Both the position numbers and the translations under genes were made by a program. From a virus (lineage: Duplodnaviria > Heunggongvirae > Uroviricota > Caudoviricetes): a stretch of 23,946 bases of DNA. Below, piece after piece: positions 4,625 to 23,946 of the stretch. The stretch is from positions 1 through 23,946 of the IMG/VR virus record IMGVR_UViG_2617270941_000003; one strand, 5' to 3'. How positions within the stretch are numbered: position 1 is the stretch's first letter; every line of letters begins with the position of its first letter. The notes under the pieces were generated by a model, which saw only the letters and a list, made by a program, of their open reading frames with translations, ran no database searches and was not told the origin of the DNA.

Positions 4625-4939
4625 TTACCGATGACCCTCATTGCCGCACCACGAATAGCAAACACCAATCAGCCCCACCCCACCACCAATGGCAACAGAA
4701 AGTGATTTAGGCCATCCGACATACTCAAGCGCGGATGCAAAGGTCAGCGTCAGAGCACCACAAAGCAGAATCTCAAGCGTTTTTCGTTTCCAGCCGCCGC
4801 CACCGCCAAAATAGGCAATGCGCAAACCAGCCATAATAATTGACATAACCACTGCACCCAGCGGCGTATCTCCACGCCACCAACTTTGTAAGAGTTCCAG
4901 TAAGTCAGGCCAGGAATGAGGGGCATTGTGCATTTTCAT
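4625..4939 (-). CDS. S: Putative class I holin with a lambda-S-like dual start (Met-Lys-Met)
   Basis: Small protein with three hydrophobic segments directly upstream of R-Rz-Rz1. The ORF opens at GTG (4948) followed by in-frame ATG-AAA-ATG (4939 and 4933), behind a GGAGGTGA Shine-Dalgarno. The sequence itself does not resemble lambda S and lacks a strongly charged C-terminal tail, so the call rests mainly on position and topology. Confidence 0.6.
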   Translation of the reverse strand: MKMHNAPHSWPDLLELLQSWWRGDTPLGAVVMSIIMAGLRIAYFGGGGGWKRKTLEILLCGALTLTFASALEYVGWPKSLSVAIGGGVGLIGVCYSWCGNEGHR

Positions 4940-5035
4940 AAGCCTCACCTCCGAGAGTTCGGATGGTGCTAAGTGTAAGATTCAGGCTCTCAGGCTTGCT
5001 AACAAGAAGTCGAGGATGTTTCCGGAGCCTAACAA

Positions 5036-5062
5036 CGAAAAAGCCCCGGGACATGCCGGGGC
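5036..5062 (-). terminator. Rho-independent terminator (minus strand) between the membrane-protein moron and the holin
   Basis: Minus-strand GC-rich hairpin (plus-strand GCCCCGG 5043-5049 pairing with CCGGGGC 5056-5062) followed on the minus strand by TTTTT. Confidence 0.5.
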
Positions 5063-5156
5063 CAGATGGAGTGCCAGATTAAGCTTCTGGCGGTATATAC
5101 TCGTGTTTGATATCGTTAAATCGCCAAAAGTAACAATTCAAACAAAGAGGATTTTT

Positions 5157-5318
5157 ATGTCTGAAAAAAACAAACCACAAGGTGAAAATAAACCTCAGCA
5201 ACCCGTGGCACCAAAACCAACTCCAACACAAAGTACTACAGACTTTGCTACACGTCGTGTTTTTGTTGGAGATTCTGCCGACTCAGTCATTGAACATATA
5301 AAAAAACAGCCGAGATAA
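5157..5318 (+). CDS. Hypothetical small hydrophilic protein (53 aa, Pro/Gln-rich N-terminus)
   Basis: ATG at 5157 preceded by AGAGGA 7 nt upstream. Translation MSEKNKPQGENKPQQPVAPKPTPTQSTTDFATRRVFVGDSADSVIEHIKKQPR. Its 3' end overlaps the 3' end of the convergent minus-strand gene by 32 nt. The longer ORF in the track (from 4926) overlaps the holin start and is probably not the real N-terminus. Confidence 0.35.
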   Translation: MSEKNKPQGENKPQQPVAPKPTPTQSTTDFATRRVFVGDSADSVIEHIKKQPR

Positions 5319-5856
5319 ACATCGCCGCTACCGGAGCAAGGATGGTATACATCCTTGCTTTATCGAGACTCGTGCGGATTTTCTCATTTTCCAACAGTAA
5401 CTCTCTTGCTGTATCACTCAAGTCAACAAGGCGATACCTTCGTATAAGCGGCAATAACTTATCAGGTCCTAAATATCCTGCATCAGCGAATATTTTAAAG
5501 CTCGAGGGCTCCATATCCTTATATTTTTCATGATATAGATGATCAGGAGGGGCATTGATCAGGCCCCTAACCTTCACAGATAAACCAGTACATACCAAGT
5601 AAATGGCGCACCATGTCCATAGTAATGTAAATGTGGTAATTCCGGCGGTGAGAAAATCGAAATTAGTTTTCTGTGTCAGCAATAAAAAAGATGAACCAAT
5701 TCCAACAATCTGAATGTTCAGAAGTTTGTATCCATTCTCAACATTGGTTTTGTTAGAAAGATGAATCTCTCGTATCGTCTCTTCCCCTTGTTTTTCAAGA
5801 TAATCGACGAGCTCATCATCTACTCCTAAAAAATAATCTTTAGGTAGTTCTCTCAT
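5287..5856 (-). CDS. Hypothetical membrane protein (189 aa, acidic N-terminal domain, three predicted TM segments); moron between the Q region and the lysis cassette
   Basis: ATG with GGAGGTGA Shine-Dalgarno 4 nt upstream. AT-rich codon usage unlike neighbouring phage genes. No family recognised from the sequence. Confidence 0.6.
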   Translation of the reverse strand: MRELPKDYFLGVDDELVDYLEKQGEETIREIHLSNKTNVENGYKLLNIQIVGIGSSFLLLTQKTNFDFLTAGITTFTLLWTWCAIYLVCTGLSVKVRGLINAPPDHLYHEKYKDMEPSSFKIFADAGYLGPDKLLPLIRRYRLVDLSDTARELLLENEKIRTSLDKARMYTILAPVAAMFISAVFLYVQ

Positions 5857-5963
5857 CTCACCTCCACATCCTGTACTGAAAACAATTTTACCAGAATGTC
5901 TCGATTCTAGGTATTCCGCCAGGAATCGCGCTCCAGAAATGAAACATCAGGTTCGCCAGTACC

Positions 5964-5994
5964 AGAAACAACAAAACCCGCTCAATGGCGGGTT
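5964..5994 (-). terminator. Putative tR'-like terminator downstream of the Q-like gene
   Basis: Minus-strand hairpin (plus-strand AACCCGC 5975-5981 and GCGGGTT 5988-5994) followed on the minus strand by TTTTGTTGTTT. Sits where lambdoid phages place tR', between Q and the first late gene. Confidence 0.5.
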
Positions 5995-6077
5995 CTGGTA
6001 AAGTTCATGCGCTTGGTTCGCCTCGCGATACAGCTTTGCGAAGCATACCGGAATTGAAGCAGTTTATGCGTAAAAAA

Positions 6078-6620
6078 TCAAGCTATTTTTTGAGCAAATG
6101 ATTCTCGCATGGGAATATATAGGGCATACTCAGCAACAGCCAACCAATTAGCAATTCGCTTTTCGCATGTGCTAAAACACCACTCAGGATGTGCATCATT
6201 TAGCAATTCAGCCATTTTGCGCTTAGTCATCCCCCGTCCTTCATACCGTTGCCGGAGGACACTAATCAATCCAGGATGCTCTGCCAGCACCTCACTTATG
6301 ACTCTATCAATACATAACGCCTCTGCATCAGTACAATGCGCCAGCCAGGTCTTTTGCTTGCCATTGATCATCTCTCGCAAAAACGCTTCCAGCTCAGGTT
6401 TCTCTATTCCCGCTTTTTTCATCCTGCGCAGGGCTTCATTGACGGCTGTTTTCGTCAATTTTTTGGATGCCAGCAACTGGTTAAACATATTTCCCGTCTT
6501 ACCGCCGCCAATATACGACCAGCGCCCCCACATGCGCAGTTTTCCCTGAATCCAGACACTTTCCAGCGTGGTGAGACGAAGGTGTTCCCCGCTTTTGCCT
6601 GTATTTGTTGGGTAAATCAT
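6078..6620 (-). CDS. Putative late-gene antiterminator (Q-like); family assignment uncertain
   Basis: 180 aa from the internal ATG at 6620 (MIYPTNTGKSG...), with a GGAGAAAGGAAGG ribosome-binding region, translationally coupled to the upstream gene by an ATGA overlap. It sits immediately upstream of a terminator and the lysis genes. The Q-like assignment is from position and overall resemblance, not a verified alignment. Confidence 0.5.
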   Translation of the reverse strand: MIYPTNTGKSGEHLRLTTLESVWIQGKLRMWGRWSYIGGGKTGNMFNQLLASKKLTKTAVNEALRRMKKAGIEKPELEAFLREMINGKQKTWLAHCTDAEALCIDRVISEVLAEHPGLISVLRQRYEGRGMTKRKMAELLNDAHPEWCFSTCEKRIANWLAVAEYALYIPMRESFAQKIA

Positions 6621-6907
6621 AAATAACCTTCCTTTCTCCAGATTTCTTGTGTGCGAAAAACACCTTCTGCATGCATCAGGCGTAATTCTTCTTTGGTGTA
6701 ATCGCTGGTTTTTACCCGCCCGTCGATTAAATCGTGGCATGAGCTACAGGCAATCGCTGCCTGCATATCGTGTGGTTTTGTCGCTGTTCCGCACGTCCCC
6801 GCCAGCCTGTAATGCGCCAGCACAGAGGTTTCGGGATTGTGATTGCAGTAGCCAGGGATTCTGATCTGGCACATCTGGCCTTTAGCCGCTTTACGTAAAT
6901 TCACCAT
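6617..6907 (-). CDS. YbcO-like prophage protein (DUF1364 family, Cys-rich putative metal-binding nuclease)
   Basis: 96 aa (MVNLRKAAKGQMCQIRIPGYCNHNPETSVLAHYRLAGTCGTATKP...IACSSCHDLIDGR), closely resembling DLP12 YbcO as recalled. Confidence 0.7.
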   Translation of the reverse strand: MVNLRKAAKGQMCQIRIPGYCNHNPETSVLAHYRLAGTCGTATKPHDMQAAIACSSCHDLIDGRVKTSDYTKEELRLMHAEGVFRTQEIWRKEGYL

Positions 6908-7506
6908 TACGCAAACTCCAGTAGTTGTGCGGCCACATTTTCAACTTCCTCCTGAGAGGAGAATTTACGGAACAGAATCCAGTTCCACAGCACATTCAGA
7001 ACAGATTTATAAACCTGCTGAAACTCGGTTTCGTCCATATTCGCAAACGCGATGGATTTCGCCCTGCGCCCACGGCTACCGTCCGGATAAATATGCTCGG
7101 TGTAAAATCCGGCCTGAATGGTTACCCACTCGCGGAAAGCCTCAAACGACTTTAGCAATGCCGTATCCCGAGTTCTGCGTGTCGCAACTGTATTTAGATA
7201 TTGCTCTGCGGCATCACTCAGGGCTGGTGTGTGTTCCCGACCAACTGATTCGCACAAGTAATCCACGAAACCAGACAGCAGTTCTCGTTCGCGAGGTGTG
7301 ATCGCCCCACCGACCGGAGTCCAGTAATCGAATCCCAGTTGCAGGAGTTTGAAAAAACGCTTGTGGAATGCGTAGTTACGCACACGCTTAAAGTCTGCGT
7401 GTATCCACTCACCTATTTTGATTTGATGCAGAAAATCGCAACTCTCCGGCGTCGCCGGGAGAAGTAAACCAGAAGAGGTTTGTTTGACCAGTTGTATATG
7501 CGCCAT
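6907..7506 (-). CDS. nin-region phage protein, possibly DUF1367 family
   Basis: 199-aa ORF directly upstream of, and coupled to, the YbcO-like gene, an arrangement common in lambdoid nin regions. Family assignment is from memory and is tentative. Confidence 0.5.
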   Translation of the reverse strand: MAHIQLVKQTSSGLLLPATPESCDFLHQIKIGEWIHADFKRVRNYAFHKRFFKLLQLGFDYWTPVGGAITPRERELLSGFVDYLCESVGREHTPALSDAAEQYLNTVATRRTRDTALLKSFEAFREWVTIQAGFYTEHIYPDGSRGRRAKSIAFANMDETEFQQVYKSVLNVLWNWILFRKFSSQEEVENVAAQLLEFA

Positions 7507-7786
7507 TTCTCAATCTCTCGATGGCGCAGCGCAGCAGATGCCAGTTGTTCAGGCTGACGAATAAAGTATAAATAAACTGGCTATGGTGTAAAGCCCCACA
7601 TAGCATGAACAAACACTACATATCAAATAGCTGGTACAAGGATAGAAATACGACATTTATTATTAAAAACGATTAGATAAATTACATTTTAATGTTATGC
7701 AAAAGTTCTTTTTTATCATAACATTTCAATAAAAGCATTACAGATGCAATCATCCCGTCATCATCAATTATTTAAGGTGGTTAAAC

Positions 7787-7873
7787 ATGGAAAATAACAA
7801 GTTCGCACATCTCGCTCCTTTTTTATCCGTAATCCTTTTCGCTTGTTGTTTTATATGGGCATTATTTTTATAA
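7787..7873 (+). CDS. Candidate small hydrophobic protein (28 aa): MENNKFAHLAPFLSVILFACCFIWALFL
   Basis: ATG at 7787 with AAGGTGG 6 nt upstream, a single predicted TM helix and a Cys-Cys pair. Lies in an otherwise ORF-free AT-rich stretch. Confidence 0.4.
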   Translation: MENNKFAHLAPFLSVILFACCFIWALFL

Positions 7874-7947
7874 AGTAGCCGCATGATAAGTTGCTGGAAT
7901 CATATTTCCCACTCAAGTCATTAACATTTGATAAGATATATCTAAAA

Positions 7948-8006
7948 GGACACCTTTACATTATTTATGTGTATATAATTTATTTATATACACAGTAAAG
8001 GTATCC
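7948..8006. repeat. Nested imperfect palindrome in AT-rich non-coding DNA
   Basis: Outer arms GGACACCTTTAC (7948-7959) and GTAAAGGTATCC (7995-8006), 11 of 12 complementary. Inner arms TGTGTATATA (7968-7977) and TATATACACA (7985-7994), a perfect 10-bp inverted repeat with a 7-bp spacer. Confidence 0.5.
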
Positions 8007-8264
8007 TGGGAAAATATTTATCGTTAAAAAATACATCATAAATAATTAAGCTGAAATTTCAGAACACAACTAATACACACAATAAGGTTCAGTAACAATA
8101 ATCTATGTGGACTACATCGAGATTTTTTGATTAAACTTTAATAACTTATTCCTAACACACAGAATGCATAAACTAAAAGTAAAACAAATAGTTATACGAA
8201 AAACAACCATATTTATTATATCTTCTCCTCTAATCAACATATCAATTATGTGTTTCATAACAGC

Positions 8265-8312
8265 TTGACATAACCCTCAAAAACACGCATTTATAATGCA
8301 TGTTTTTGAGGG
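8265..8312 (+). promoter_or_regulatory. Putative promoter with an overlapping 17-bp inverted-repeat operator upstream of the YeaR-like gene
   Basis: Consensus TTGACA (8265-8270) and TATAAT (8292-8297), but with a long 21-bp spacer. Inverted repeat CCCTCAAAAACACGCAT (8274-8290) / ATGCATGTTTTTGAGGG (8296-8312), one mismatch, centred on the -10 element. Confidence 0.45.
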
Positions 8313-8319
8313 GGTGGTT

Positions 8320-8658
8320 ATGACACACAAGAGAATTCCTAAAGATTGGGTAATCAAACGCTCAACTCCGTTCTTCACAAAAGAGAACGTACCTTCAGCG
8401 TTATTAACACATCATAATACAGCAGCAGGTGTTTTTGGGCAGTTGTGCGTAATGGAAGGCACTGTAACATATTATGGTTTTACTGATGAGAATGCTACTG
8501 AACCGGAGATAAAAGTAGTCATTAATGCTGGCGCTTTTGCAACAAGCCCACCACAATACTGGCACCGTGTTGAACTAAGCGATGATGCTCAGTTTAATAT
8601 TAACTTTTGGGTCGCTCCAGACTTCTCGGGCGAAAAAGTCTATAGCACCAAAAAATAG
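8320..8658 (+). CDS. YeaR-like protein (DUF1971, the domain also found at the TehB N-terminus)
   Basis: 112 aa from the ATG at 8320 (GAGGGGG Shine-Dalgarno). Motifs RSTPFF, CVMEGTVTYYGFTDE, EPEIKVVINAGAFATSPPQYWHRVE and FNINFWVAPD parallel E. coli YeaR as I recall it. Confidence 0.65.
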   Translation: MTHKRIPKDWVIKRSTPFFTKENVPSALLTHHNTAAGVFGQLCVMEGTVTYYGFTDENATEPEIKVVINAGAFATSPPQYWHRVELSDDAQFNINFWVAPDFSGEKVYSTKK

Positions 8659-8687
8659 ATGATCATATTAAAAATGCTTTAACAGTC

Positions 8688-8725
8688 AGACCCGGCAGGG
8701 CTATCCCCGACGGGTCTCATTTTTG
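8688..8725 (+). terminator. Rho-independent terminator of the YeaR-like gene
   Basis: AGACCCG (8688-8694), loop, CGGGTCT (8711-8717), then CATTTTTGT. Confidence 0.6.
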
Positions 8726-9420
8726 TAAATATATTGGTTCTACATTGACAGGAGACTTCAACCATAAGAAGTAATCTGAATACTTGAGCAATAAATTTAC
8801 TTAAGATTAATGAGCGCACCTTGCCGGACAAAGATAAACCAAGGTAACACCTTTTTTCTAGCCAGTATGTAATCAATCAGAAAGCCGCTCCATAAGAACA
8901 ACAGCAAGACAATAAATTGCCATTACAGCCGCAATAGCCAGCGCACATTTGAGAACCAGCACGACAACCCCCTGTATTAGACGCACACCAGTCCTGATAA
9001 ATATGAGGCTGTCTCGTCAGTGATTCAATACAACTATTGGGTATAGTTTCTGTGATTTTATTCTGTAGAAATGGAACACAACAACCAGTCACCACCAGCA
9101 CTTCTTTAAATACGCCAAGTCCGACGCAAGCTAACCTTCTAGTCCGCTTTGAGCGAAAAGCGGACAGGAACATTCTGGTTAATAGATATCAATGCTAACA
9201 AAAAAGCTCCCGATGGAGATTTTGAAACCGCTTCCACATAATGAAATAAAAGGATTTATTTCTGATCATGCCCACACATTGACCACGTCGAAGTAAGTAG
9301 CTCCGCTTCGCGGAGTTACTTAAGATAATTTCTATGTAGTTCCATGCTATGATTTAATTTTCAAGTTACAAAATCTAAATCTACAAATGTCCATTTGGGT
9401 GTAAAATTACACAATCCTAT

Positions 9421-11746
<2,326 letters not shown>

Positions 11747-12047
11747 TTTAATTACCTTATATATCCAAACTCTTAATTTTCTCTTTTTTACCATAGGATT
11801 AATCCAAAATAAAGACCTTGTTGACTAAACCCTCATGTACAAAATGCACACTTACTCAAAAGGATCTGGAGGCAATCTCGACCTCCATGATTTAGTTCCT
11901 AGGGATAAGCAGAAATCTAGCACTGGATTAAAATTTAAAAATAATAATCAATAGGTTATAATGGTTTTTATTCGCATCCATGGGATCTGCTGCTGCCCGC
12001 ATGATGTTGGATGCGACGGCGCTGGCACGACCTCACCCGGTGAAACG

Positions 12048-12492
12048 ATGAAACGCGAAAGGGTTGTTCTTCGGGAAGGTGCAGTTGGACTTTCAATCGA
12101 TGACGTTGCAAAAGAGGCTGGCGTCAGTAAGGCAACGGTAATGTACGATCATAAGTCAAAGCAAGATTTGCTCAGCGATCTCATCAGTCGCCTTATGCCA
12201 GTAGAGGAGGAACGTGTTCAGCAAGCGATAGCGGAAAGTAATAATACCCCACATCCCGCACTCTATGGGCGAATTATTTCAGCCAGTAATGCTCTCAGTC
12301 ATACTGAGAGCAGTAGTGCTGGCGGTCAGCGAATCGTTAACTAACGATACGAATATCAGGGACACCATGCGTTCCTGCACAAACAAAGATTTGGATGAGA
12401 TAAAAAGAGGACCAAAACCAGACGTTGCCGTCCTGGTATATTTGGCGTTATCTGGTATCTACTGCCAAGAATTTTTTGATTTTTACAAATGA
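12048..12492 (+). pseudogene. TetR-family transcriptional regulator, apparently frameshifted, divergent from the three-gene operon
   Basis: The first ORF (frame of 11961..12344) carries a TetR-type helix-turn-helix (LSIDDVAKEAGVSKATVMYDHKSKQDLLSDLI) from an internal ATG at 12048. A second overlapping ORF (12265..12492) in a different frame could be the remaining C-terminal domain. Confidence 0.4.
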
Positions 12493-12765
12493 TCTCCTGG
12501 CGAGCGAGATAAAATTATCGAAGGCATTCGCTGTTTGTATGAATCATACCCTTACAAGTCTGAATAAATAATGTCTCCGGGAATGACATTTCATGTGCGA
12601 CTAATTCGCGATATTCCTATACGTAAAGGTCCGCTTTTGGCACAAAGTGGACAACCACGCTAGCTCTACCCTGTGCCACAAAATGTCAATTTGCATCTGA
12701 ACTAATGCACTTTAATCTCGTCACTTCAATAAATACCGAACATCCCCCTGATAAAACGACAATAT

Positions 12766-13143
12766 TCACTGCATAACTTCACTCTTCAGGCACTCGCGAC
12801 AGATTATGTTCAGACGCCTGTCGTAACGGCGTATTTCTCCGTCTGGTAATGACCAGATAAGGTCAGGATCAACCACAACCGGTTTCTTCACCTTTGTCCT
12901 TGATAGTTTTTTGCGGGCGTTTTGCCAGTCTTTACGCGCCTGCTCAGACGGGAATAATCCGTAGCCTGAATTGTAAACATCACCACTGGCGACTAGTTCT
13001 CTGGCGAGAGTGCTTATGTAATACCTTGATGCACCGGTTTTAGCCTCCAGAGCCCGTAACGTCTCGCGACCGCTCAGAGGTACAAGTTCAACAACCTGTC
13101 CTTTAATTTTTTCTCGCTCTTCTGGTGTAAATACTTTTGCCAT
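12766..13143 (-). CDS. Hypothetical phage protein (125 aa)
   Basis: ATG at 13143 with GGAGG 5 nt upstream; the track's longer ORF begins at an upstream TTG. Follows the preceding gene after a 15-nt gap. No family recognised. Confidence 0.5.
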   Translation of the reverse strand: MAKVFTPEEREKIKGQVVELVPLSGRETLRALEAKTGASRYYISTLARELVASGDVYNSGYGLFPSEQARKDWQNARKKLSRTKVKKPVVVDPDLIWSLPDGEIRRYDRRLNIICRECLKSEVMQ

Positions 13144-13158
13144 AGGTGCCTCCGGCAA

Positions 13159-13920
13159 TCACTTTTCCGATGCAACATGGCGGGAAGAATCAGTAATCTG
13201 TCGTACAATATCCCTGTGCTTGTTCAACTCACGCAGCGCGGCGCAGACACGCTCCCACTTCTGGACATGATTTTTCGCCCGACGCAGTTCGCGGTTTGCC
13301 ATATGCAGTGATGGTAAAACCAGGTCATCCGCTCGCGTTTCAGTAAACGATGGCAGCGACTGCACAATGTCCGCCACAGTTTCTGTTTTAATATCTTCCT
13401 GTGTTGCAGCCTCCTGTACTGGTAACGCAACACCTGCGGTCTGAGGAAAGGCCTTACCATCAGTTTCCGCTACCGATGCTGCTTTCGGCTCTGCTGGTAA
13501 ATTATCGCCCGGTATGCAGTAACGAAATTTACCGCCCTGATTTACGCGAATCAGACGACCTTTGCTGATTGCCATTGCCAGCGTTGAAGCCACTTTGCGT
13601 GATGTGGTACCAAACAATGTAGCCAGCTCATCAGCCGTTTGTGGTCCTCGTTGTTCAATCGTCGCGGTTAAATCGCACTCTGAGATTTTCGCTACTGTTG
13701 CTGTGGTGATTTCTTCCGGCAGTTCTGCCTGCGCTGGCTGTTCCTGCTGAACATTGTTATCAGCCACACGCCAGGTGTACGCGCTTTTATCAACAAAACC
13801 AGCCTTTTTCAGTTCCCATAGTTCGTTCAGCACTTCTTCACGACTGATATCAAGTCGCGCAGCAAGTTCTATGGATGTGGCTTTTCCCATTGCTTTCAGT
13901 GCGTCAAAAACAGTCTCCAT
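13159..13920 (-). CDS. Hypothetical phage protein with two winged-helix-like segments (about 254 aa)
   Basis: ATG at 13920 with GGGAGA 8 nt upstream (the track ORF extends to 13971 and would overlap the DnaC-like gene). Segments [30 protein letters not shown] and [33 protein letters not shown] look like DNA-binding winged helices. Confidence 0.5.
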
Positions 13921-13942
13921 TAAATTTTTCTCCCGGTAAAAA

Positions 13943-14689
13943 TTACTTCGCAATTCCTGGCTGGACGACATTCGGACGCCAGCTCTCCCAGTTAAAATTC
14001 ACCCATCGCCCGCCGTTCATGGTCATGCGATCCATAATCCGCTCGCCGAGCAATGTTTTCATGGCCTCATAGTTCAGGTTTGTCAGCATCCCCACGCTGC
14101 GCATCGACGCTGTCCGGCGATCAACAATCTGGTGCAGTACCACCTGCTCGTTTTTCGTCTCGCGCTGAATGCCAATTTCATCAAGAACCAGCAGATCCAC
14201 TTCGCACAGTTCCCGCAAAAATTTTTCGCCTGACTGCCCATCGTCATAGCTGGCGTGCAGGGCACTCATAACATCAGCCACGGTAACCACAATCACTGTC
14301 TGACCGTCTTTCAGCAGGCGATTCCCGATAGCTGCCGCTAAGTGGTTCTTCCCGGTACCAGGTTTTCCGCTGAACGCAAAATTTGTACACCCGGTCATCA
14401 GTTCATCAGCGATGGATTTCGCCTGACTCAACGCGTATCGCTGCCCTTCGTTCTGCACCTGGTAATTCGAAAACGAGCATTTGCGGTGCAATGGCTGGAT
14501 GCCAGAGCGATTCAGAATTTTTTCCACCCGCAACTGACGATTCTGACGGTTGATCTCCTCACAACGTTTCTGGCCTTCGGAAAGTTGCCACTCGCGCCAC
14601 TCCGCTACCGTCTTGAATGGCGCGGTTACATGTGACGGGGCCAGTCTGCGGATACGTTCAAGAACATCGCCTGTCGCAATATTTTTCAT
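13943..14689 (-). CDS. ydaV: DnaC/IstB-like AAA+ helicase loader (lambda P-analogous replication protein)
   Basis: 248 aa with Walker [12 protein letters not shown] and Walker B LLVLDEIG. Length and position match Rac YdaV. Confidence 0.85.
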
Positions 14690-14695
14690 GGTCAG

Positions 14696-15553
14696 TTACC
14701 CCCTGAAGCCTGGCGGGATCGCACTATCCGGTAACGAGACGGTGTTAACCTGTCGGAGTAACGTCTCAGGTCGAACACCTTTCGGCGCGAACAAGCCCTG
14801 GTATTCATTGGCGATGCTGTGTCGAATCACCTGCTCAGGTGAAAAACCCTGCTGGCGGAATTTTTCCAGCTCCCGTATCGCCCCGTTAGCGCCCTGCTCC
14901 GTTCGAATCGGTTTTCGCAATGCCTGGCGAAATTCAACCCACTCACGCCAAAGCGAGACAGAAATCCAGTTCGGCAAAGTAATATCCAGAGGGTCAAACT
15001 TTTTGACACCTCGATTCCCCCGGGGGGGATTTAGGGGGGGATCTGTTTTTAGATCTTTATCTGTATCTTTATTAGTTGCCTTTGTGTTGACATCATGTTC
15101 AAACACCACTTCAACATCTGTTTGAACACCTGTTAAATTTCTCTCTTGTTTTGTTTGAACATCTGCTTCCTTTCTGCTTCTTCTGGCCTGAACAGATGCT
15201 TTTCCTGCGGCTGATTTTTTGGTTAATTTTTCCCTGACTGATGCCAGATCTTCCTCAATCCGAAGATGCACCCATTCCTCGCCGTTATCGCAAAAAAACT
15301 CCTGCAAGGATGGTTCAACATCAGCCCATCGCTCGTTAGTCAGACGGGCAATTTTTGCCAGCCTGTTTTTAGGTATTGGCTTTCCTGTTTGCCAGTAATT
15401 GAACATCAGCAACAAATACGCACCATGCTCCTCTGCTGACAAATGCATGGTGTCAGCCAGGTAATCAGCTATGTACAGTTGCATGTATGGTAATGCGGCC
15501 ATAATTGCCCCGTATGATGCTGCCCGGTGGCTTAGAATAAGCACAAACAGCAT
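14696..15553 (-). CDS. ydaU: YdaU-like replication protein (O-like initiator, DUF1376-type)
   Basis: 285-aa ORF immediately upstream of the DnaC-like gene, matching the YdaU length I recall. Contains internal iteron-like repeats and homopolymer tracts. The start is uncertain; an alternative ATG lies at 15502. Confidence 0.7.
   Translation of the reverse strand: MLFVLILSHRAASYGAIMAALPYMQLYIADYLADTMHLSAEEHGAYLLLMFNYWQTGKPIPKNRLAKIARLTNERWADVEPSLQEFFCDNGEEWVHLRIEEDLASVREKLTKKSAAGKASVQARRSRKEADVQTKQERNLTGVQTDVEVVFEHDVNTKATNKDTDKDLKTDPPLNPPRGNRGVKKFDPLDITLPNWISVSLWREWVEFRQALRKPIRTEQGANGAIRELEKFRQQGFSPEQVIRHSIANEYQGLFAPKGVRPETLLRQVNTVSLPDSAIPPGFRG
15096..15161. repeat. Iteron-like 10-bp repeats inside the O-like gene (candidate replication origin)
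   Basis: TGTTCAAACA at 15096-15105 (inverted) and TGTTTGAACA at 15119-15128 and 15152-15161 (direct), each flanked by CATCTG. Lambda's origin likewise sits as iterons inside the O coding sequence. Confidence 0.4.
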
Positions 15554-15728
15554 GGAAACTTTTGCTTAATGAACAATGACAGAATCGTCGGAAGAACCGC
15601 CGCCGCTGAAATGCGCTTTCCGGTAAGGGGTTAAGTAGCCAGCCCGAGGCGTATGAACATGACGGCGGGATTCAAATTTTGCAGTGCAGCAGTTAGTTCC
15701 GCCACCCGGCGTTAAGGGGAGAGATAAG

Positions 15729-15863
15729 ATGGTGCATTACGAAGTAGTTCAGTATTTGATGGATTGTTGCGGTATCACTTACAACCAGGCTGTGCAGGCT
15801 TTACGCAGCAACGACTGGGATCTCTGGCAGGCAGAAGTCGCTATACGTAGCAACAAGATGTGA
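15729..15863 (+). CDS. ydaG: Small protein, probable YdaG homologue (44 aa)
   Basis: ATG with AGGGGAGAG Shine-Dalgarno. Translation MVHYEVVQYLMDCCGITYNQAVQALRSNDWDLWQAEVAIRSNKM. Length and position match Rac ydaG; sequence identity was not checked. Confidence 0.5.
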   Translation: MVHYEVVQYLMDCCGITYNQAVQALRSNDWDLWQAEVAIRSNKM

Positions 15864-15873
15864 GATTCGCAAA

Positions 15874-16029
15874 ATGCAAAAAATCGACCTCGGCAACAAC
15901 GAATCCCTGGTGTGCGGCGTGTTCCCCAACCAGGATGGAACGTTCACTGCCATGACGTATACCAAAAGCAAAACATTTAAAACCGAAACTGGTGCGCGCC
16001 GATGGTTGGAGAAGCACACAGTAAGCTAA
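15874..16029 (+). CDS. ydaF: Small protein, probable YdaF homologue (51 aa)
   Basis: Translation MQKIDLGNNESLVCGVFPNQDGTFTAMTYTKSKTFKTETGARRWLEKHTVS. Follows ydaG after 10 nt; its 3' end overlaps the convergent sieB stop by 4 nt. Confidence 0.5.
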   Translation: MQKIDLGNNESLVCGVFPNQDGTFTAMTYTKSKTFKTETGARRWLEKHTVS

Positions 16030-16514
16030 CGATTAAAACGTCTACTCCTGCTGTTCCAGAATAACTTCATAAAATGGGAGTATTTTTCGGTGACGAGATA
16101 ATAAGAACAGTTTGCGCTATCACTCTGATGTTGAATGATGCCCTTCCGTTCTAATTTTTTCATAACCGGGTTACGGCAAGGAGAAGTGATAATAAGATTT
16201 CCTGTTTTAAGGAAATCTTTAAATACAGCGATTTCTTTCTCAGATAAACGAAGCAATACTCGTTGCTCTGGTAGTAATGAATAATGCTTTTGAATATGTG
16301 CTCGCAATCTTGAGAAGGAAATGGCGACCACGAAAGAAAAGGCAAAAACGATAATCTGAAAGAGCCAAGGTATTTCAGTATAAGCATTGAATGCGACAGT
16401 AAACTCTTTCGGTATCAGCCAGAGAGTGAGACCAAAAATGATAATCGTATACATAAGTCTTTCGAGTGGCTCGTTTGCAAAAAGTTTCAACAATGGAGTA
16501 AATACATCCAACAT
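16026..16514 (-). CDS. sieB: Superinfection exclusion protein B-like membrane protein
   Basis: 162 aa from the internal ATG at 16514 (MLDVFTPLLKLF...), matching the Rac SieB length, with several TM helices. Divergent from kilR as in Rac. Confidence 0.7.
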   Translation of the reverse strand: MLDVFTPLLKLFANEPLERLMYTIIIFGLTLWLIPKEFTVAFNAYTEIPWLFQIIVFAFSFVVAISFSRLRAHIQKHYSLLPEQRVLLRLSEKEIAVFKDFLKTGNLIITSPCRNPVMKKLERKGIIQHQSDSANCSYYLVTEKYSHFMKLFWNSRSRRFNR

Positions 16515-16955
16515 ATCAATAACTCTCAACTGTAAGGGTATTGAAATGTTAACACAAGCTCTCGCTGTAGGGGTATAGCCGAGACCACCGAAGCCCGGAG
16601 GTGGTGAAATAAAACCGGGCACAACACGAAGGCGCATTTCCGATATCCATAAAGAGTCGGTCTTGTCTGTTAAATTTAAATGGTGGGAGTGCGCCTCCGG
16701 TTGTAAATAACGACATTGCTGTGTGTAGTCCTGGCGGCATCAGTTTTTTTCTTGAAGTTCGGCTGATGTCCGCCCTTTTTAAAGTGAATTTTGTGATGCG
16801 GTGAATGCGGCTAAGCGCACGTGGCACAGTTAAAAGTCATGTTAGTCCTTATTGGTTTGGGTGGGAAAGCCGACTGTAATTGTTAACTGGTTGCAGTCAC
16901 CTGGAGGCACCAGGCACCGCATCAACAAAGTTCATTTGTAAAAATGGAGATAATT

Positions 16956-17177
16956 ATGATTGCACATCACTTCGGAACTGATGAAATACCACGTCAGTGT
17001 GTGACTCCTGGTGATTATGTTCTTCATAACGGCCGGACATATATTGCCTCGGCAAACAATATTAAAAAGCGAAAACTTTATATTCGTAACCTGACCACAA
17101 AAACATGCATTACTGACTGCATGATTAAAGTCTTCCTCGGTCGTGATGGTTTACCTGTAAAGGCGGAGTCATGGTGA
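16956..17177 (+). CDS. kilR: KilR, FtsZ-targeting cell-division inhibitor
   Basis: 73 aa from [46 protein letters not shown]..., matching Rac KilR as recalled. Confidence 0.8.
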
Positions 17178-17347
17178 TGACTAAGAAAATAAAATGTGCT
17201 TACCACCTTTGCGATAAAGAAGTTAAAGAAAGCAAAAGCATTAAAAGACCACTTCATTTCATGCGTGGAGTTATCCCAACGACGGAAATGAAAAAATATT
17301 GTAGTGAAATATGTGCCGAAAAAGACCAGATGGCACACGAAATTTAA
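17177..17347 (+). CDS. ydaE: YdaE-like small zinc-binding protein (56 aa)
   Basis: Translation [56 protein letters not shown] with C-x-x-C...C-x-x-x-C spacing. Its start overlaps the kilR stop. Below the ORF-track length cutoff. Confidence 0.65.
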   Translation: MTKKIKCAYHLCDKEVKESKSIKRPLHFMRGVIPTTEMKKYCSEICAEKDQMAHEI

Positions 17348-17421
17348 TTAACTGACTATGCGAAACTGAATTTATGCCAGCAATGGCAGGGATTCGCTCA
17401 ACCTTAATTAAGGAGAAAAAC

Positions 17422-17697
17422 ATGATTACCAGTTATGAAGCCACTGTTGTAACTACTGATGACATTGTTCACGAAGTTAATCTGGAAGGAAAGCGTATTG
17501 GCTACGTGATTAAAACAGAAAATAAAGAAACCCCATTCACTGTGGTTGATATCGACGGTCCATCAGGCAACGTTAAAACACTTCACGAAGGTGTCAAAAA
17601 AATGTGCCTGGTGCATACCGGAAAGAATCTGCCCGCAGAAAAAAAAGCCGAATTTCTGGCAACTCTAATTGCAATGAAATTAAAAGGTGAAATCTGA
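17422..17697 (+). CDS. racC: RacC protein
   Basis: 91 aa from MITSYEATVVTTDDIVHEVNLEGKRIGYVIK..., with AGGAGA Shine-Dalgarno 6 nt upstream. Confidence 0.8.
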   Translation: MITSYEATVVTTDDIVHEVNLEGKRIGYVIKTENKETPFTVVDIDGPSGNVKTLHEGVKKMCLVHTGKNLPAEKKAEFLATLIAMKLKGEI

Positions 17698-17798
17698 AAG
17701 AAATAGCCTGCGTATGGCGCAGGCTATGAACAGTGTGTATCCGGCAAGATCATTCACTGAACAAAACGAATTTTAATCTGAGTTGAGGTTAAAAAACA

Positions 17799-20700
17799 AT
17801 GAGCACAAAACCACTCTTCCTATTACGGAAAGCGAAAAAATCATCCGGTGAACCTGACGTCGTCCTGTGGGCAAGCGACGATTTTGAATCGACCTGTGCC
17901 ACTCTGGACTACCTGATCGTTAAGTCAGGTAAAAAACTGAGCAGCTATTTTAAAGCTGTTGCCACGAATTTTCCTGTCGTTAATGACCTGCCCGCTGAAG
18001 GTGAGATCGATTTTACCTGGAGTGAACGCTACCAACTCAGCAAAGACTCCATGACATGGGAACTAAAACCGGGAGCAGCACCAGACAACGCTCACTATCA
18101 AGGCAATACCAACGTCAACGGCGAAGACATGACTGAGATTGAGGAGAATATGCTACTCCCAATTTCTGGCCAGGAACTGCCCATTCGCTGGCTTGCTCAA
18201 CACGGCAGCGAAAAACCGGTAACGCATGTTTCACGCGACGGACTCCAGGCATTACACATTGCTCGGGCTGAAGAACTACCGGCTGTTACTGCCCTGGCTG
18301 TTTCCCACAAAACCAGCCTGCTCGACCCGCTGGAAATTCGCGATCTCCACAAACTGGTTCGTGACACTGACAAAGTTTTCCCTAATCCTGGTAATTCAAA
18401 CCTGGGACTGATAACTGCTTTTTTCGAAGCATACCTGAACGCTGACTACACCGATCGAGGACTGCTGACAAAAGAGTGGATGAAGGGTAATCGTGTTTCA
18501 CACATCACTCGCACGGCTTCCGGTGCTAATGCTGGCGGCGGAAACCTCACCGATCGCGGCGAAGGTTTCGTACACGATCTGACGTCACTGGCGCGCGACG
18601 TAGCCACTGGCGTACTGGCCCGTTCAATGGATCTGGACATCTATAACCTTCATCCGGCACACGCTAAACGCATTGAGGAAATTATCGCTGAAAATAAACC
18701 GCCCTTTTCTGTTTTCCGCGACAAATTCATCACCATGCCTGGCGGGCTGGATTATTCCCGCGCCATCGTGGTTGCGTCCGTAAAAGAAGCACCAATTGGG
18801 ATCGAGGTCATCCCCGCGCACGTCACTGAATATCTGAACAAAGTACTGACTGAAACCGATCATGCCAACCCTGATCCGGAAATCGTGGATATTGCCTGCG
18901 GTCGCTCCTCTGCCCCAATGCCGCAGCGTCTAACAGAAGAAGAAAAACAGGATGATGAAGAAAAACCGCAACCATCTTGCGCAATGGCAGATGAACAGGC
19001 AACGGCTGAAACAGTGGAACCGGATGCAACTGAACATCATCAGGACACGCAGCCGCTGGATGCTCAGTCACAGGTAAATTCTGTTGATGCGAAGTATCAG
19101 AAACTGCGGGCAGAACTCCATGAAGCCCGGAAAAACATTCCGCCCAAAAATCCTGTCGATGCAGACAAATTACTGGCTGCCTATCGCGGAGAATTTGTTG
19201 AAGGGATTAGCGACCCGAATGATCCGAAATGGGTTAAGGGGATCCAGACCCGCGATTCTGTGTACCAGCATCAGCCAAAAACGGAACAGAACGACCGAAA
19301 ATCGGAACAAAACGGCCAAAATGCGCGACAAAATGAACCAGAAGCGCAACAGGAACCGGAAAAAGTCTGCGCCGCCTGCGGTCAGACCGGCGGCAGTAAC
19401 TGCCCTGACTGTGGCGCGGTGATGGGCGACGCAACATACCAGGAAACATTCGATGAAGAGAATCAGGTTGAAGCTAAGGAAAATGATCCGGAGGAAATGG
19501 AAGGCGCTGAACATCAGCACAAGGAGAACGCTGGCAACCATCCGCATCACGATTGCAGTGATGAAACTGGTGAAGCGTCAGCTCATGTAGCAACTGAAAT
19601 CATGTGGCCATCATATTTCGAGCCTGGCCGCTATGAAAACCTCCCGAGCGAGGTTTATCACTCCGCCAACGGAATAAGCAGCACAATGCTGAAGGATGCC
19701 CGCATCAGTCTGATGTATTACCACGGGCGGCACATTGCCAGGACTATTCCGAACGAGGAAAGTGATGCATTGCTGCGTGGGCGGATCATTCACAGCTATG
19801 TTCTGGAAACGGATAAATTCGCTGATGAATATGCCATTCCGGTACCGGTTCCTGAATATGTGGTTACTACTTCTAACGAACTGATCACCATCATTAAAAA
19901 ACACAATGCCAGTCTGCCATCACTGATGACACCAGAGCAGATGAAAGAGTGGATCGAAAGCTACAACAGCACTCTTATACAGCCACTGTCGGTAAGCGCT
20001 GGGGCCGAAGAAACAGGCATCCTTTACGGTTCGCTTCCGGAGGAATTTCGGCGTATTCCTGAGGGGGAAAAACACAAAGCATCAGCAATGAAAGCCTGTA
20101 TTAAAGAATACAACGCAAGCCTCCCTCCTCTGCTGAAAACCAGTGGAACACGGGAGCAGCTTCTGGAGCAAATTGAAACTGTAGATCCAGAACTGGCAAA
20201 AAAAGAACGTGCTAAATCGTTGCCTTACAACATCAGTGGCACAAAAGAGCAATTAACCGAAATCGCCCGGAAAATTCGCCCGAAACTGGTAACACTGGAG
20301 GATTGGCAAAAACGCCAGCAAGAAGAAAATGCAGGAAAAACGTTTATCAGTCCAGATATGTATGAACAGGCAAAAAATATTCACGCGGCACTGCAAAACA
20401 ATACTGACGCGGCAAGACTACTCAACCACCCGGATCGCAAATCTGAAATCAGCTATTTCGGGTTTGATGAAGAAACCGGGCTGGAAATCAGGGTCCGCCC
20501 TGATATCGAAATCCGACTGCCATACGAAAGCATCTGCGCCGACGTGAAGTCAGTCAGCCTCGGTTATGTGCGGCAAGAACGACTAAAAGATCGCTTACAC
20601 CGTGAAATTATTGAACGTGATTATCACCTGAGCGCCGCAATGTACTGCGATGTGGCAAACCTGGACAAATTTTTCTGGATCTTCGTCAACAAAGATGCTG

Positions 20701-20891
20701 GCTATCACTGGGTGGCTGTCGTGGAAGCCTCGCAGGAACTCCTGGAACTTGGTCGACAGGAATATCGCCGGACGCTACGACAGATAAACGAAGCGCTGGA
20801 GACAAACAACTGGCCAGCACCGATTACCGAAAGTTATACCGACGAATTAAACGACTTTGATCTTCGTCGTCTTGAAGCACTGAGCATCTGA
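17799..20891 (+). CDS. recE: Exodeoxyribonuclease VIII (RecE-like), 1030 aa, with a divergent C-terminal PD-(D/E)XK nuclease domain
   Basis: The N-terminal ~600 aa ([44 protein letters not shown]...) follow K-12 RecE closely as recalled, including the CxxC...CPDC zinc ribbon. The C-terminal domain ([11 protein letters not shown]...RPDIEIR...ADVKSVS) is RecE/YqaJ-like but clearly different from K-12 and longer. Confidence 0.85.
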
Positions 20892-20902
20892 GGAAGGACA
20901 CA

Positions 20903-21955
20903 ATGAACGAATTAACTCAACAAGAAAATATTAACTCTAATGTTGCGGTTTTCAGCCCTCAGTCTCTGACTGCAATTCAGACGTTTTCTCAGGTAATGGC
21001 TTCCGGCATGGCTACTGTACCGGAACACCTCCGAGGAAATCCATCAGACTGCATGGCCATCACCATGCAGGCGATGCAGTGGCAAATGAACCCTTACGCA
21101 GTAGCTCAGAAAACTTTCGTTGTGAATGGTGTGCTCGGATATGAAGCGCAACTGGTTAATGCCGTAATCAGTACTCGTGGGCCGCTAACCGGGCGTATTG
21201 AATATGACTGGTTCGGGCCGTGGGAAAAAATTATCGGGAAATTTGAAATCAGGAAGAACGACAAAGGGAAAGAATATCGTGTACCTGGCTGGAAGCTGGC
21301 CGATGAAAACGGGATTGGAGTTCGCGTCCAGGCAACACTACGCGGAGAGAGCAAACCACGCGTACTGGAGTTACTTCTGGCGCAGGCCAGAACACGTAAC
21401 TCAACGTTATGGGCCGATGATCCTCGTCAGCAGCTTGCCTATCTGGCACTCAAACGCTGGGCGCGCCTTTATTGCCCTGAAGTGATTCTTGGAGTGTACA
21501 CCCGGGACGAACTGGACGAACCACAGGAAAAAATCATTAATCCGGTTCAGGAACATAAAAACACATCCGCCTGCCGTGCGGAACGTGAAACAACAATTAT
21601 TGAGCAGGATGCCGGGGAAAACTGGATCAGTGCTTTCCGTGAACGTATTGAGCAGGCACAAAGCACCGGAGAAACAACAGCACTTCGGCAGGAAGTGGAA
21701 GAGCATAAAAATACACTTGGCGCTCTCTATACGGAACTAAAAGGAAAAGTGGTTCAGCGTCATCACCGTCTCAATGCTATTGCCCGTATTGAGAAGATGA
21801 TAAATGACCTGCCTTCATCAGGTGATCCGGAAGCAGAACAAAAATTTACTGCTCTGGAAAATACGCTGAATACTGCACGACCACATCTGGGAGAATTATA
21901 TGAGGCGTATAAAACGACACTGACAGATATGAAACCAGAATATATCGAACCCTGA
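20903..21955 (+). CDS. Single-strand annealing protein, RecT/Red-beta-like partner of RecE (not the K-12 RecT sequence)
   Basis: 350-aa ORF 11 nt downstream of recE, in the position of recT. No Walker motifs, which argues against a Sak4/RecA-type protein. Family assignment by position and general character only. Confidence 0.55.
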   Translation: MNELTQQENINSNVAVFSPQSLTAIQTFSQVMASGMATVPEHLRGNPSDCMAITMQAMQWQMNPYAVAQKTFVVNGVLGYEAQLVNAVISTRGPLTGRIEYDWFGPWEKIIGKFEIRKNDKGKEYRVPGWKLADENGIGVRVQATLRGESKPRVLELLLAQARTRNSTLWADDPRQQLAYLALKRWARLYCPEVILGVYTRDELDEPQEKIINPVQEHKNTSACRAERETTIIEQDAGENWISAFRERIEQAQSTGETTALRQEVEEHKNTLGALYTELKGKVVQRHHRLNAIARIEKMINDLPSSGDPEAEQKFTALENTLNTARPHLGELYEAYKTTLTDMKPEYIEP

Positions 21956-22018
21956 TATTTACTATGGCGGTGTAGCCTCACCGCCATAACAAAAATTTAT
22001 TATATGAGAGAAAAGACA

Positions 22019-22213
22019 ATGCGGTATGAAAAAGTCAAACCATGTCTATTTTGTGGTTGTCCATCAGTAACGGTGAACGCCATTTCAGGATATTACCGAG
22101 CGAAGTGTAACGGATGCGAATCCCGAACCGGTTATGGTGGAAGTGAAAAAGAAGCACTCGAAAGATGGAATAAACGAACCACTGGAAATAATAATGGAGG
22201 TGTTCATGTATAA
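22019..22213 (+). CDS. ralR: Lar/RalR (restriction alleviation protein and type I toxin DNase)
   Basis: 64 aa from MRYEKVKPCLFCGCPSVTVNAISGYYRAKCNGCESRTGYGGSEKEALERWNKRTTGNNNGGVHV, near-identical to Rac Lar as recalled. Confidence 0.8.
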   Translation: MRYEKVKPCLFCGCPSVTVNAISGYYRAKCNGCESRTGYGGSEKEALERWNKRTTGNNNGGVHV

Positions 22214-22394
22214 AATTACCGCCACTATTGAAAAGGAAGGTGGCACTCCTACTAACTGGACAAGATATTCAAAATCTAAACTAACGAAATCAGAATGCGA
22301 AAAAATGCTCTCAGGTAAAAAAGAAGCAGGCGTTTCCAGAGAGCAGAAAGTAAAACTGATAAATTTTAATTGCGAGAAACTTCAGTCCTCGTGA
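22206..22394 (+). CDS. ydaC: YdaC-like small protein
   Basis: 62 aa from MYKITATIEKEGGTPTNWTRYSK..., with GGAGGTG Shine-Dalgarno. Its start overlaps the lar stop (ATGTATAA). An upstream in-frame ATG at 22194 is also possible. Confidence 0.6.
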   Translation: MYKITATIEKEGGTPTNWTRYSKSKLTKSECEKMLSGKKEAGVSREQKVKLINFNCEKLQSS

Positions 22395-22493
22395 ATTGCA
22401 TTGTATTCAAATTAAAACTTCATAGCTGATTATTAATAATCAACATCGGGCGTCAATTTCAGTCTAACATTGGCGCCTGCCAGAGGTGATGCG

Positions 22494-22709
22494 ATGGCAC
22501 AAGTAATCTTTAATGAAGAGTGGATGGTTGAATACGGCCTGATGCTTCGCACTGGTCTGGGGGCCAGACAAATTGAAGCATACCGCCAGAACTGTTGGGT
22601 GGAGGGCTTCCACTTCAAACGAGTATCTCCTTTAGGTAAGCCAGACAGCAAACGAGGGATTATCTGGTACAACTATCCAAAGATAAATCAGTTTATCAAA
22701 GACTCATGA
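22494..22709 (+). CDS. xisR: Excisionase-like protein (Rac XisR/YdaQ-like)
   Basis: 71 aa ([35 protein letters not shown]...) immediately upstream of the integrase with a 1-nt gap. Confidence 0.7.
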
Positions 22710-22710
22710 T

Positions 22711-23946
22711 ATGTCTAAATTACCAACAGGTGTCGAGATTAGAGGTAGAAACATTCGCATCTGGTTCATGTTTCGAGGAAAACGATGTCGGGAAACATTA
22801 AAAGGCTGGGAGATTACAAACAGTAATATTAAAAAGGCCGGAAATTTAAGAGCGCTGATAGTTCATGAAATAAACTCCGGTGAATTTGAGTATTTAAGAC
22901 GTTTTCCCCAGTCCAGCACTGGGGCAAAAATGGTGACAACGAGGATCATAAAAACGTTCGGGGAGCTTTGTGATATCTGGACAAAAATTAAAGAGACAGA
23001 GTTAACAACAAACACAATGAAGAAAACGAAATCACAATTAAAAACACTCAGAATAATAATTTGTGAGAGCACCCCAATATCACATATTCGTTATAGCGAT
23101 ATCTTAAACTATCGGAATGAACTGCTGCATGGAGAAACGCTTTACCTGGATAATCCAAGATCCAACAAAAAAGGAAGAACCGTGCGCACAGTTGATAACT
23201 ATATCGCCCTGCTCTGTTCGTTGTTACGTTTTGCATATCAGTCGGGATTTATATCAACCAAACCATTTGAAGGAGTAAAAAAATTACAGCGAAACAGAAT
23301 AAAGCCTGATCCGTTATCTAAAACAGAATTCAATGCATTAATGGAAAGTGAAAAAGGACAGAGCCAGAACTTGTGGAAATTTGCCGTTTACTCCGGGCTT
23401 CGTCACGGGGAACTGGCTGCTCTGGCGTGGGAGGATGTGGATTTCGAGAAGGGAATTGTGAATGTCAGAAGAAACCTGACGATACTTGATATGTTCGGTC
23501 CCCCAAAAACAAATGCCGGGATCCGGACGGTAACATTACTACAGCCAGCTCTTGAAGCACTGAAGGAGCAATACAAACTGACCGGGCATCATCGCAAAAG
23601 CGAAATCACTTTTTATCATCGGGAGTACGGCAGAACCGAAAAGCAAAAACTGCATTTTGTTTTCATGCCCAGGATGTGTAACGGAAAACAGAAACCTTAT
23701 TACTCGGTAAGCAGTTTGGGTGCGAGATGGAATGCAGCAGTAAAACGTGCTGGTATTCGCCGCCGTAATCCGTACCATACGCGACATACTTTTGCCTGCT
23801 GGCTGTTGACGGCAGGAGCGAACCCGGCATTTATAGCCAGCCAGATGGGGCATGAAACTGCGCAGATGGTGTATGAAATTTACGGTATGTGGATTGATGA
23901 CATGAACGACGAACAGGTAGCTATGTTGAATGCGCGGTTATCGTAG
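22711..23946 (+). CDS. intR: Tyrosine integrase, lambda Int family (Rac IntR-like)
   Basis: 411 aa. C-terminal catalytic region with R...HxxR...Y context (RHTFACWLL, GHETAQMVYEIYGMW). The N-terminus MSKLPTGVEIRGRNIRIWF is typical of Rac/e14-type integrases. Confidence 0.9.
   Translation: MSKLPTGVEIRGRNIRIWFMFRGKRCRETLKGWEITNSNIKKAGNLRALIVHEINSGEFEYLRRFPQSSTGAKMVTTRIIKTFGELCDIWTKIKETELTTNTMKKTKSQLKTLRIIICESTPISHIRYSDILNYRNELLHGETLYLDNPRSNKKGRTVRTVDNYIALLCSLLRFAYQSGFISTKPFEGVKKLQRNRIKPDPLSKTEFNALMESEKGQSQNLWKFAVYSGLRHGELAALAWEDVDFEKGIVNVRRNLTILDMFGPPKTNAGIRTVTLLQPALEALKEQYKLTGHHRKSEITFYHREYGRTEKQKLHFVFMPRMCNGKQKPYYSVSSLGARWNAAVKRAGIRRRNPYHTRHTFACWLLTAGANPAFIASQMGHETAQMVYEIYGMWIDDMNDEQVAMLNARLS

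Follow-up and report, generated by a model that had tools for sequence, protein, structure and literature searches.

The DNA between ydaG and ydaU in the prophage analysed here raises the question of where its immunity region went and how its two early operons would behave after losing their repressor. A first-pass annotation of this locus had claimed that racR, ydaS and ydaT are missing together, that such a joint loss is viable because RacR is needed only to silence the toxic ydaS-ydaT pair, and that it leaves the replication operon without its cognate repressor.

The ydaU-ydaG interval and its prophage context

By its gene order, the stretch of DNA under study (23,946 nt; hereafter, the window) is assigned to a Rac-family lambdoid prophage: it shows the Rac synteny ydaV-ydaU ... 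ydaG-ydaF-sieB-kilR-ydaE-racC-recE-recT ... xis-intR and runs opposite to the K-12 map orientation. Positions 1901-15626 are 99.9% identical to the full-length Rac-like prophage of BR1220, and positions 15622-19575 are 96% identical to K-12. The window ends at the intR stop (23946); in a related assembly, GCA_000704125.1 (L004), a 311-aa ATP_bind_3 gene follows directly after the end of intR, which is the ttcA position in BR1220. According to the K-12 annotation, the Rac order is sieB, ydaF, ydaG, racR, ydaS, ydaT, ydaU, just as the first-pass annotation had given it. In the window, a mere 175 bp (15554-15728) run from the ydaU start codon to the ydaG start codon, and the RacR-type immunity region (racR, operators, ydaS, ydaT) is absent save for 19 ydaT codons. 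The interval and its surroundings comprise the following features (L001 denotes the K-12 locus):

2064-3539, minus strand: trkG
13943-14689, minus strand: ydaV, DnaC/IstB-like replication ATPase (248-aa ORF; Pfam IstB_IS21 and Bac_DnaA; K-12 synteny)
14696-15553, minus strand: ydaU, O-like replication initiator, DUF1376 (285 aa; Pfam DUF1376)
15554-15565, no strand: original 12-bp ydaT-ydaU spacer, unaltered (alignment to K-12)
15566-15626, minus strand: 3' remnant of ydaT, 61 bp, stop plus codons 122-140, including GGTAA (tblastn)
15622-15626, no strand: deletion junction with a single GGTAA, where the BLAST pieces overlap
15627-15728, plus strand: distal 102 nt of the putative leftward (PL-like) transcript leader, identical to K-12 L001 5515-5616
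15729-15863, plus strand: ydaG, 44 aa, leading gene of the leftward early operon ("phage protein" in K-12)
15874-16029, plus strand: ydaF, DUF1391, 51 aa (ORF; K-12 annotation; Pfam DUF1391 on the identical L004 gene)
16026-16637, minus strand: sieB, superinfection exclusion (ORF; Pfam SieB on L004)

The close abutment of ydaG and ydaU described earlier is thus borne out by the ORF list and the sequence. Four flanking genes, ydaV, ydaU, ydaG and ydaF, are intact; YdaU is 100% identical to its K-12 counterpart (tblastn), as is the YdaG protein, and ydaV is the second gene of the orphaned rightward operon. In the K-12 locus, the ydaT stop is annotated at 3967 and the ydaU start at 3954. Beyond the spacer that corresponds to this gap, tblastn with K-12 YdaT places residues 122-140 at window 15569-15625 with 100% identity, and this remnant reads as a dead fragment because its upstream in-frame translation has no start codon. 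The 102-nt remainder of the leader upstream of ydaG is now severed from what we assign in silico as its PL-like promoter.

No repressor- or Cro-like ORF lies in 15554-15728, as had been noted before, the sole ORF there being a GTG-extended reading of ydaG. Folded as RNA, both strands of the 175 bp were no stabler than shuffled controls (z 0.17 and 0.36), and Rfam gave 0 matches within the interval. With ORF, folding and Rfam searches all negative, we reject the idea that the 175 bp conceal a small repressor, a Cro gene or an RNA element. Across the whole 23.9-kb window, tblastn with K-12 RacR and YdaS gave no RacR- or YdaS-like match, so that no racR homologue is present elsewhere in it; YdaT 122-140 is the only trace of the three genes, and a functional ydaT is absent.

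Rightwards from trkG, the window holds a lysis cassette, a Q-like gene, a cargo operon, DUF977 and DUF1627 genes, ydaV and ydaU; past sieB follow kilR, ydaE, racC, a 1,030-aa RecE, RecT and intR. A Q-like antiterminator and a holin-endolysin-Rz cassette are retained downstream of the PR position, and the lysis cassette is absent from K-12. At the other end, a tail-fibre assembly gene (120-701) is followed by an N-terminally truncated tail-fibre gene (701-2125) that abuts trkG, and homology to the BR1220 Rac begins only at window position 1901. Since this tail-fibre fragment abuts trkG and BR1220 homology starts only there, the head and tail genes are missing and the prophage was defective already.

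Several further observations concern the other modules of this prophage. The cargo operon (minus strand) encodes an adenosine deaminase (10766-11794), a Ham1-like NTP pyrophosphatase (10215-10769) and a SIR2-like protein (9421-10215), for which PADLOC gave matches to a ThsA-type SIR2 and a CARF_ADA-type deaminase. A divergent TetR gene (~12048-12492) is frameshifted in the window and in L004 and intact, with 177 aa, in three relatives (L003, L005 and L006), and the SIR2-Ham1-deaminase cargo may be a defence island with an inactivated regulator. Among Rac relatives (L007-L016), the segment from the DUF977 gene to the nin-like genes is a hot spot of variable cargo: depending on the locus, it holds the SIR2-Ham1-deaminase operon, a 1,210-aa YobI-type ATPase, an ORC/CDC6-like protein of 689 aa, a DNA methylase with an AAA ATPase, or a KilA-N/BstA protein. 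Neither K-12 nor BR1220 gives a nucleotide match to positions 19576-21964, which span the 3' half of recE and the whole of recT. The RecE of the window has 1,030 aa, with an Exonuc_VIII N-terminus and a DUF3799 PD-(D/E)XK C-terminus, and its RecT has 350 aa; we read these recombination genes as a module swap. The plus strand of the sieB-kilR gap gave two sub-threshold Rfam matches, a DicF-like RNA at 16720-16775 (39.1 bits vs a gathering threshold of 48; E 4e-6) and an STnc100-like RNA at 16777-16963 (35.5 bits vs 47). Within ydaU, a 10-nt palindrome-like motif, TGTTCAAACA / TGTTTGAACA, occurs three times at 15096-15162; by analogy to the lambda ori, these repeats are probably the iterons of a replication origin inside this O-like gene.

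A deletion between two GGTAA repeats and its inheritance

Alignment of window 14600-16700 to the Rac prophage of K-12 MG1655, as had been proposed by the first-pass annotation along with a look for junction repeats, yields two pieces of 100% identity that span 3,588 bp in K-12 and 2,101 bp in the window, so that K-12 holds 1,487 bp more (L001 4028-5514). Window position 15626 corresponds to L001 4027 and window position 15622 to L001 5510 (alignment and BLAST), and both flanks are colinear up to the breakpoints, each matching K-12 without a mismatch for ~1 kb. The overlap of the pieces is explained by the pentamer GGTAA, which K-12 has twice (L001 4023-4027 and 5510-5514) and the window only once, at 15622-15626. 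In the intact relatives BR1220 and GCA_021912865.1 (L003), GGTAA likewise bounds a 1,492-bp segment at both ends. No repeats longer than GGTAA were found at the breakpoints, and the alignment to K-12 reveals no FRT scar, IS element, filler or extra bases at the junction; microhomology of 5 bp or more would arise at a random junction with a probability of ~0.005. These results confirm that the 175-bp interval is the product of a scarless microhomology deletion of 1,487 bp, which took codons 1-121 of ydaT, all of ydaS and racR, the 123-bp racR-ydaS spacer and 201-206 bp 3' of racR, leaving 19 codons of ydaT behind.

The survival of this 19-codon remnant marks the interval as a deletion and not an ancestral arrangement. 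Together with the identity of both flanks to Rac, it rules out an ancestral or mosaic arrangement and makes the prophage a deletion derivative of Rac and not a member of another family. The event would have been a spontaneous deletion between the GGTAA in the 3' end of ydaT and that in the leftward early leader, for which the 5-bp repeat points to illegitimate recombination or replication slippage as the mechanism.

When queried with 501 bp around the junction, 5,426 complete E. coli genomes had 0 places with at least 80% coverage, and a 35-nt junction search of three large collections (genome, metagenome and viral contigs) gave 0 matches; the deletion allele was found only via an exact-protein look-up of the window's RecE allele, which returned 11 contigs. 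This absence from all 5,426 genomes and all three contig collections is what would be expected if the junction were due to assembly collapse or contig chimerism or had been engineered as a scarless knockout. However, three separately deposited assemblies that mutually differ by SNPs and an indel have the same junction: L004 (JNQL01000007.1) is 100% identical to window 7799-23946, while GCA_017131775.1 (L005) and GCA_030003155.1 (L006) show 2-3 SNPs and one indel compared to the window. Furthermore, a 5-bp repeat is unable to cause assembly collapse, and the prophage concerned is a wild-type-like Rac variant with cargo that is not in K-12. The endpoints lie inside ydaT and inside the leader, away from the gene borders that a designed construct would follow, and with no scar at the junction this rules out an engineered knockout. 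An origin as artefact or laboratory construct is therefore hardly credible. A near-isogenic fourth assembly, L003, retains intact copies of ydaT, ydaS and racR; it shows 4 SNPs in 14.7 kb compared to the window, and 1 SNP in its GGTAA-bounded segment compared to K-12. Because three assemblies share the junction and this fourth one is intact, we conclude that the deletion is a recent, heritable allele of one lineage and neither an assembly artefact nor a lab construct. As an event, it is ordinary prophage decay by microhomology deletion; the natural allele is new, and its kind is well understood.

Promoters, operators and the expression of the early operons

What was lost besides coding sequence is best seen in K-12, where the racR-ydaS spacer holds the mapped promoters of ydaS and racR as well as RacR operators (PMC9638921, PMC5700373) and a YdaT box lies at the ydaT start codon (PMC11879457), which also falls within the deletion. 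The only mapped promoter of the ydaU-ydaV operon is PydaST, given that ydaT has no promoter of its own (PMC9638921), and this PR-like promoter (L001 4764-4735) is inside the deleted segment. Using the RacR operator consensus TAGGC-n3-GCCTA (PMC9638921), we found 6 matches with at most 2 mismatches in the 9.6-kb K-12 locus, of which four lie in the racR-ydaS spacer and two at L001 5406 and 5431. The deletion takes all six, and the early region of the window has 0 matches. Separately, L003 and K-12 differ at a single position of the deleted segment (L003 ~7108, equivalent to K-12 L001 4794), where a G-to-T change turns the operator-like repeat TAGGGATTGCCTA into TAGGTATTGCCTA.

The two operator matches outside the spacer flank a promoter match that points into ydaG and is likewise inside the deletion. 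This sequence, TTGACA-17-TATAGT at L001 5419-5447, matches the sigma-70 consensus in 11/12 positions. The operator matches on its two sides read TAGGCATAGCCTA (no mismatch) and TAGGCATTACCTA (1 mismatch). In an intact relative, the PR and PL regions form a 35-nt inverted repeat of 83% identity. The heteroimmune Rac relative L008 matches K-12 from L001 5455 onwards, a boundary immediately 3' of the PL -10 hexamer, upstream of which it has another promoter and operator/repeat set. RacR depletion was reported to raise the expression of ydaG, ydaF, kilR, ydaE and racC by 40- to 70-fold (PMC11014345). Based on the operators and promoter, their inverted copy at PR, the L008 boundary and these transcriptomes, K-12 L001 5406-5447 can be read as a previously unremarked PL/OL analogue. 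A simple consensus scan, which recovers both promoters in K-12 and could miss a weak or fusion-created one, gave 0 promoter-like sites at threshold on either strand of the 175 bp and none created by the fusion.

A single step thus removed the whole lysis-lysogeny switch, comprising RacR (the CI analogue), YdaS (the Cro analogue) and the DNA-binding part of YdaT (the CII analogue), along with all RacR operator matches and the YdaT boxes. It also took both divergent early promoters, the mapped PR-like PydaST and the putative PL-like one upstream of ydaG. The rightward operon (ydaU, ydaV, the Q-like gene and, via Q, holin, endolysin and Rz) and the leftward operon (ydaG, ydaF, kilR, recET, xis and int) would both be promoterless and are most likely silent. 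In this way, the lethal functions (YdaS/YdaT, KilR on the leftward side, and replication, Q-like antiterminator and lysis cassette on the rightward side) would lose their promoters along with their repressor, so that the cell survives and the allele is inherited. The remaining prophage would be transcriptionally headless, that is, non-inducible, non-replicating and without repressor immunity, and would stay locked in the chromosome together with its cargo of trkG, the SIR2-Ham1-deaminase operon, sieB and recET. All in all, we think it very probable that a microhomology deletion of the entire switch and the early promoters has created a silent, locked-in prophage remnant.

Taken literally, the remark that the replication operon no longer has its cognate repressor is correct, yet the derepression that it implies is unlikely to follow since the promoter is gone as well. 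If the ydaU-ydaV operon and the genes downstream were constitutively on without RacR, one would expect what the window shows in part, i.e., no RacR and intact ydaU and ydaV. On the other hand, the only mapped promoter of the operon lies inside the deletion, ydaT could not supply one of its own (PMC9638921), 0 promoter-like sites are seen in the 175 bp, and the upstream ydaT frame has lost its start and with it any translational coupling to ydaU. Constitutive in-situ replication and Q-dependent lysis would, moreover, presumably be deleterious, yet several isolates inherit the allele. Because promoter and operators were lost with the repressor, we expect the replication operon to be silent and consider its derepression very improbable.

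Transcription could also reach ydaU from further upstream. The nearest upstream gene on the ydaU strand (minus) is sieB, the sole evident source at a distance of 473 bp, and read-through of its transcripts might give low, repressor-independent expression of ydaU-ydaV and possibly of downstream cargo. Between sieB and ydaU, the minus strand has 0 terminator-like hairpins; the ~1.5 kb that formerly separated the two genes are gone together with the convergent racR, and so are the operators at which bound RacR could have acted as a roadblock. However, the gap of ~470 nt would be transcribed as untranslated antisense of ydaF and ydaG, a typical target of Rho, and no sieB promoter reached the scan threshold except for one site within the gene. 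In addition, ydaU has no obvious Shine-Dalgarno sequence, and the translated frame upstream of it is lost. We therefore regard expression by such read-through as unlikely and keep silence of both early operons as the preferred reading.

The viability of a joint loss of racR, ydaS and ydaT, as proposed by the first-pass annotation, agrees with K-12 genetics (PMC5700373, PMC5700377). In K-12, deletion of racR requires that ydaS and the intergenic region be removed with it or that the strain already lack ydaS-ydaT (PMC5700373), and the toxicity of racR silencing is fully gone in a ydaS ydaT double deletion (PMC5700377). The accompanying statement that RacR is needed only to silence ydaS-ydaT is K-12-centred and contested (PMC5917428): Jobling views racR, ydaS and ydaT not as a toxin system but as a functional switch whose genes are analogous to those of CI, Cro and CII (PMC5917428), and operators and promoters on both sides of racR fit this view. 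For the prophage studied here, loss of the promoters along with the repressor accounts for survival better than the loss of ydaS-ydaT by itself would, given that a lysis cassette absent from K-12 is retained; with Q-like gene and lysis cassette retained, it matters more that the promoter went with the repressor. Loss of PL would not be strictly needed for survival since K-12 lacking ydaST tolerates a racR deletion in which the sequence 3' of racR is preserved (PMC5700373). Previous work found ydaS never without racR and loss of racR tolerated only together with loss of ydaS, ydaT or their promoter (PMC5700373). Similarly, all relatives that we compared at the K-12 ydaS locus and that have a K-12-type ydaS also have racR, and racR, ydaS and ydaT were lost together both in the window and in two other natural deletion types. 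At the same locus in CP039753.1 (L013; 1362-2679), ydaT and ydaU are not called between ydaS and ydaV, with DNA that is 98.8% identical to the window, and the two genes may be pseudogenes there.

Comparison with known systems

The lambda immunity region is ordered OL/PL - cI - OR/PRM/PR - cro - cII. As in lambda, the segment deleted here consists of a repressor gene between two inverted operator-promoter sets, with PL assigned in silico only, and Cro-like and CII-like genes lie downstream of PR (PMC5917428, PMC9986795). Unlike in lambda, the operators are of the form TAGGC-n3-GCCTA and the proteins are not close homologues; RacR is ~15% identical to lambda CI (PMC5700373), and YdaS does not repress racR (PMC9638921).

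The closest parallels are deletions of racR-IGR-ydaS and of racR ydaS-ydaT that were engineered in the Rac prophage of K-12 (Krishnamurthi et al. 2017, PMC5700373; Bindal et al. 2017, PMC5700377), the smallest viable one being racR plus spacer plus ydaS (PMC5700373). In near-identical sequence, these mutants share with the allele described here the loss of the repressor, of ydaS/ydaT and of their common promoter-operator region, with the cells remaining viable. In contrast, the allele in the window is natural, scarless and bounded by 5-bp microhomology, reaches 201-206 bp past racR and thereby takes the PL-like pair, leaves 19 codons of ydaT, and sits in a fuller Rac with Q-like gene, lysis cassette and extra cargo. 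It mirrors in nature the laboratory finding that loss of racR is possible only along with what RacR represses, and goes beyond racR, ydaS and ydaT by stripping both early promoter-operator sets. The near-isogenic intact and deleted isolates constitute a pair for questions about expression, excision and cargo benefit of a switchless Rac.

Two other natural deletions of the region were encountered. A recE'::ydaU' fusion with a one-piece junction and a 4-bp overlap is present in 9 complete genomes, e.g., that of YZ22MPE54, and was seen in NZ_CP139337.1 (L014/L018); a recE'::ydaT' fusion that keeps the last 47 ydaT codons is present in CH4799 (NZ_CM166346.1; L017). As in the window, the two early promoters are gone from both along with racR, ydaS and the portion of ydaT for DNA binding, and ydaV and the genes downstream are retained. 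Unlike the allele in the window, they also lack ydaG, ydaF, sieB, kilR, ydaE, racC and the 5' part of recE, and they are much larger (~4.4 kb for recE'::ydaU', estimated from window coordinates plus 1,487 bp). Since their junctions differ, these deletions arose independently, so that three independent junctions in natural E. coli converge on loss of the switch. It is conceivable, if doubtful, that switch loss is a recurrent, selected step of domestication that locks in a cargo-rich Rac and not neutral decay. If true, one deletion would strip the repressor, both anti-repressor regulators and both early promoters, and hence the lethal potential, and a new sieB-to-ydaU read-through unit could be a side effect.

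The Rac, Qin and e14 elements of K-12 exemplify defective prophages that have shed phage functions by stepwise deletion but kept cargo. The prophage in the window resembles them in the loss of its head and tail genes and in the cargo that it retains. Rac, Qin and e14 of K-12 keep their repressors, which are essential there (PMC5917428), whereas in the prophage described here the repressor and the promoters of its targets were lost together.
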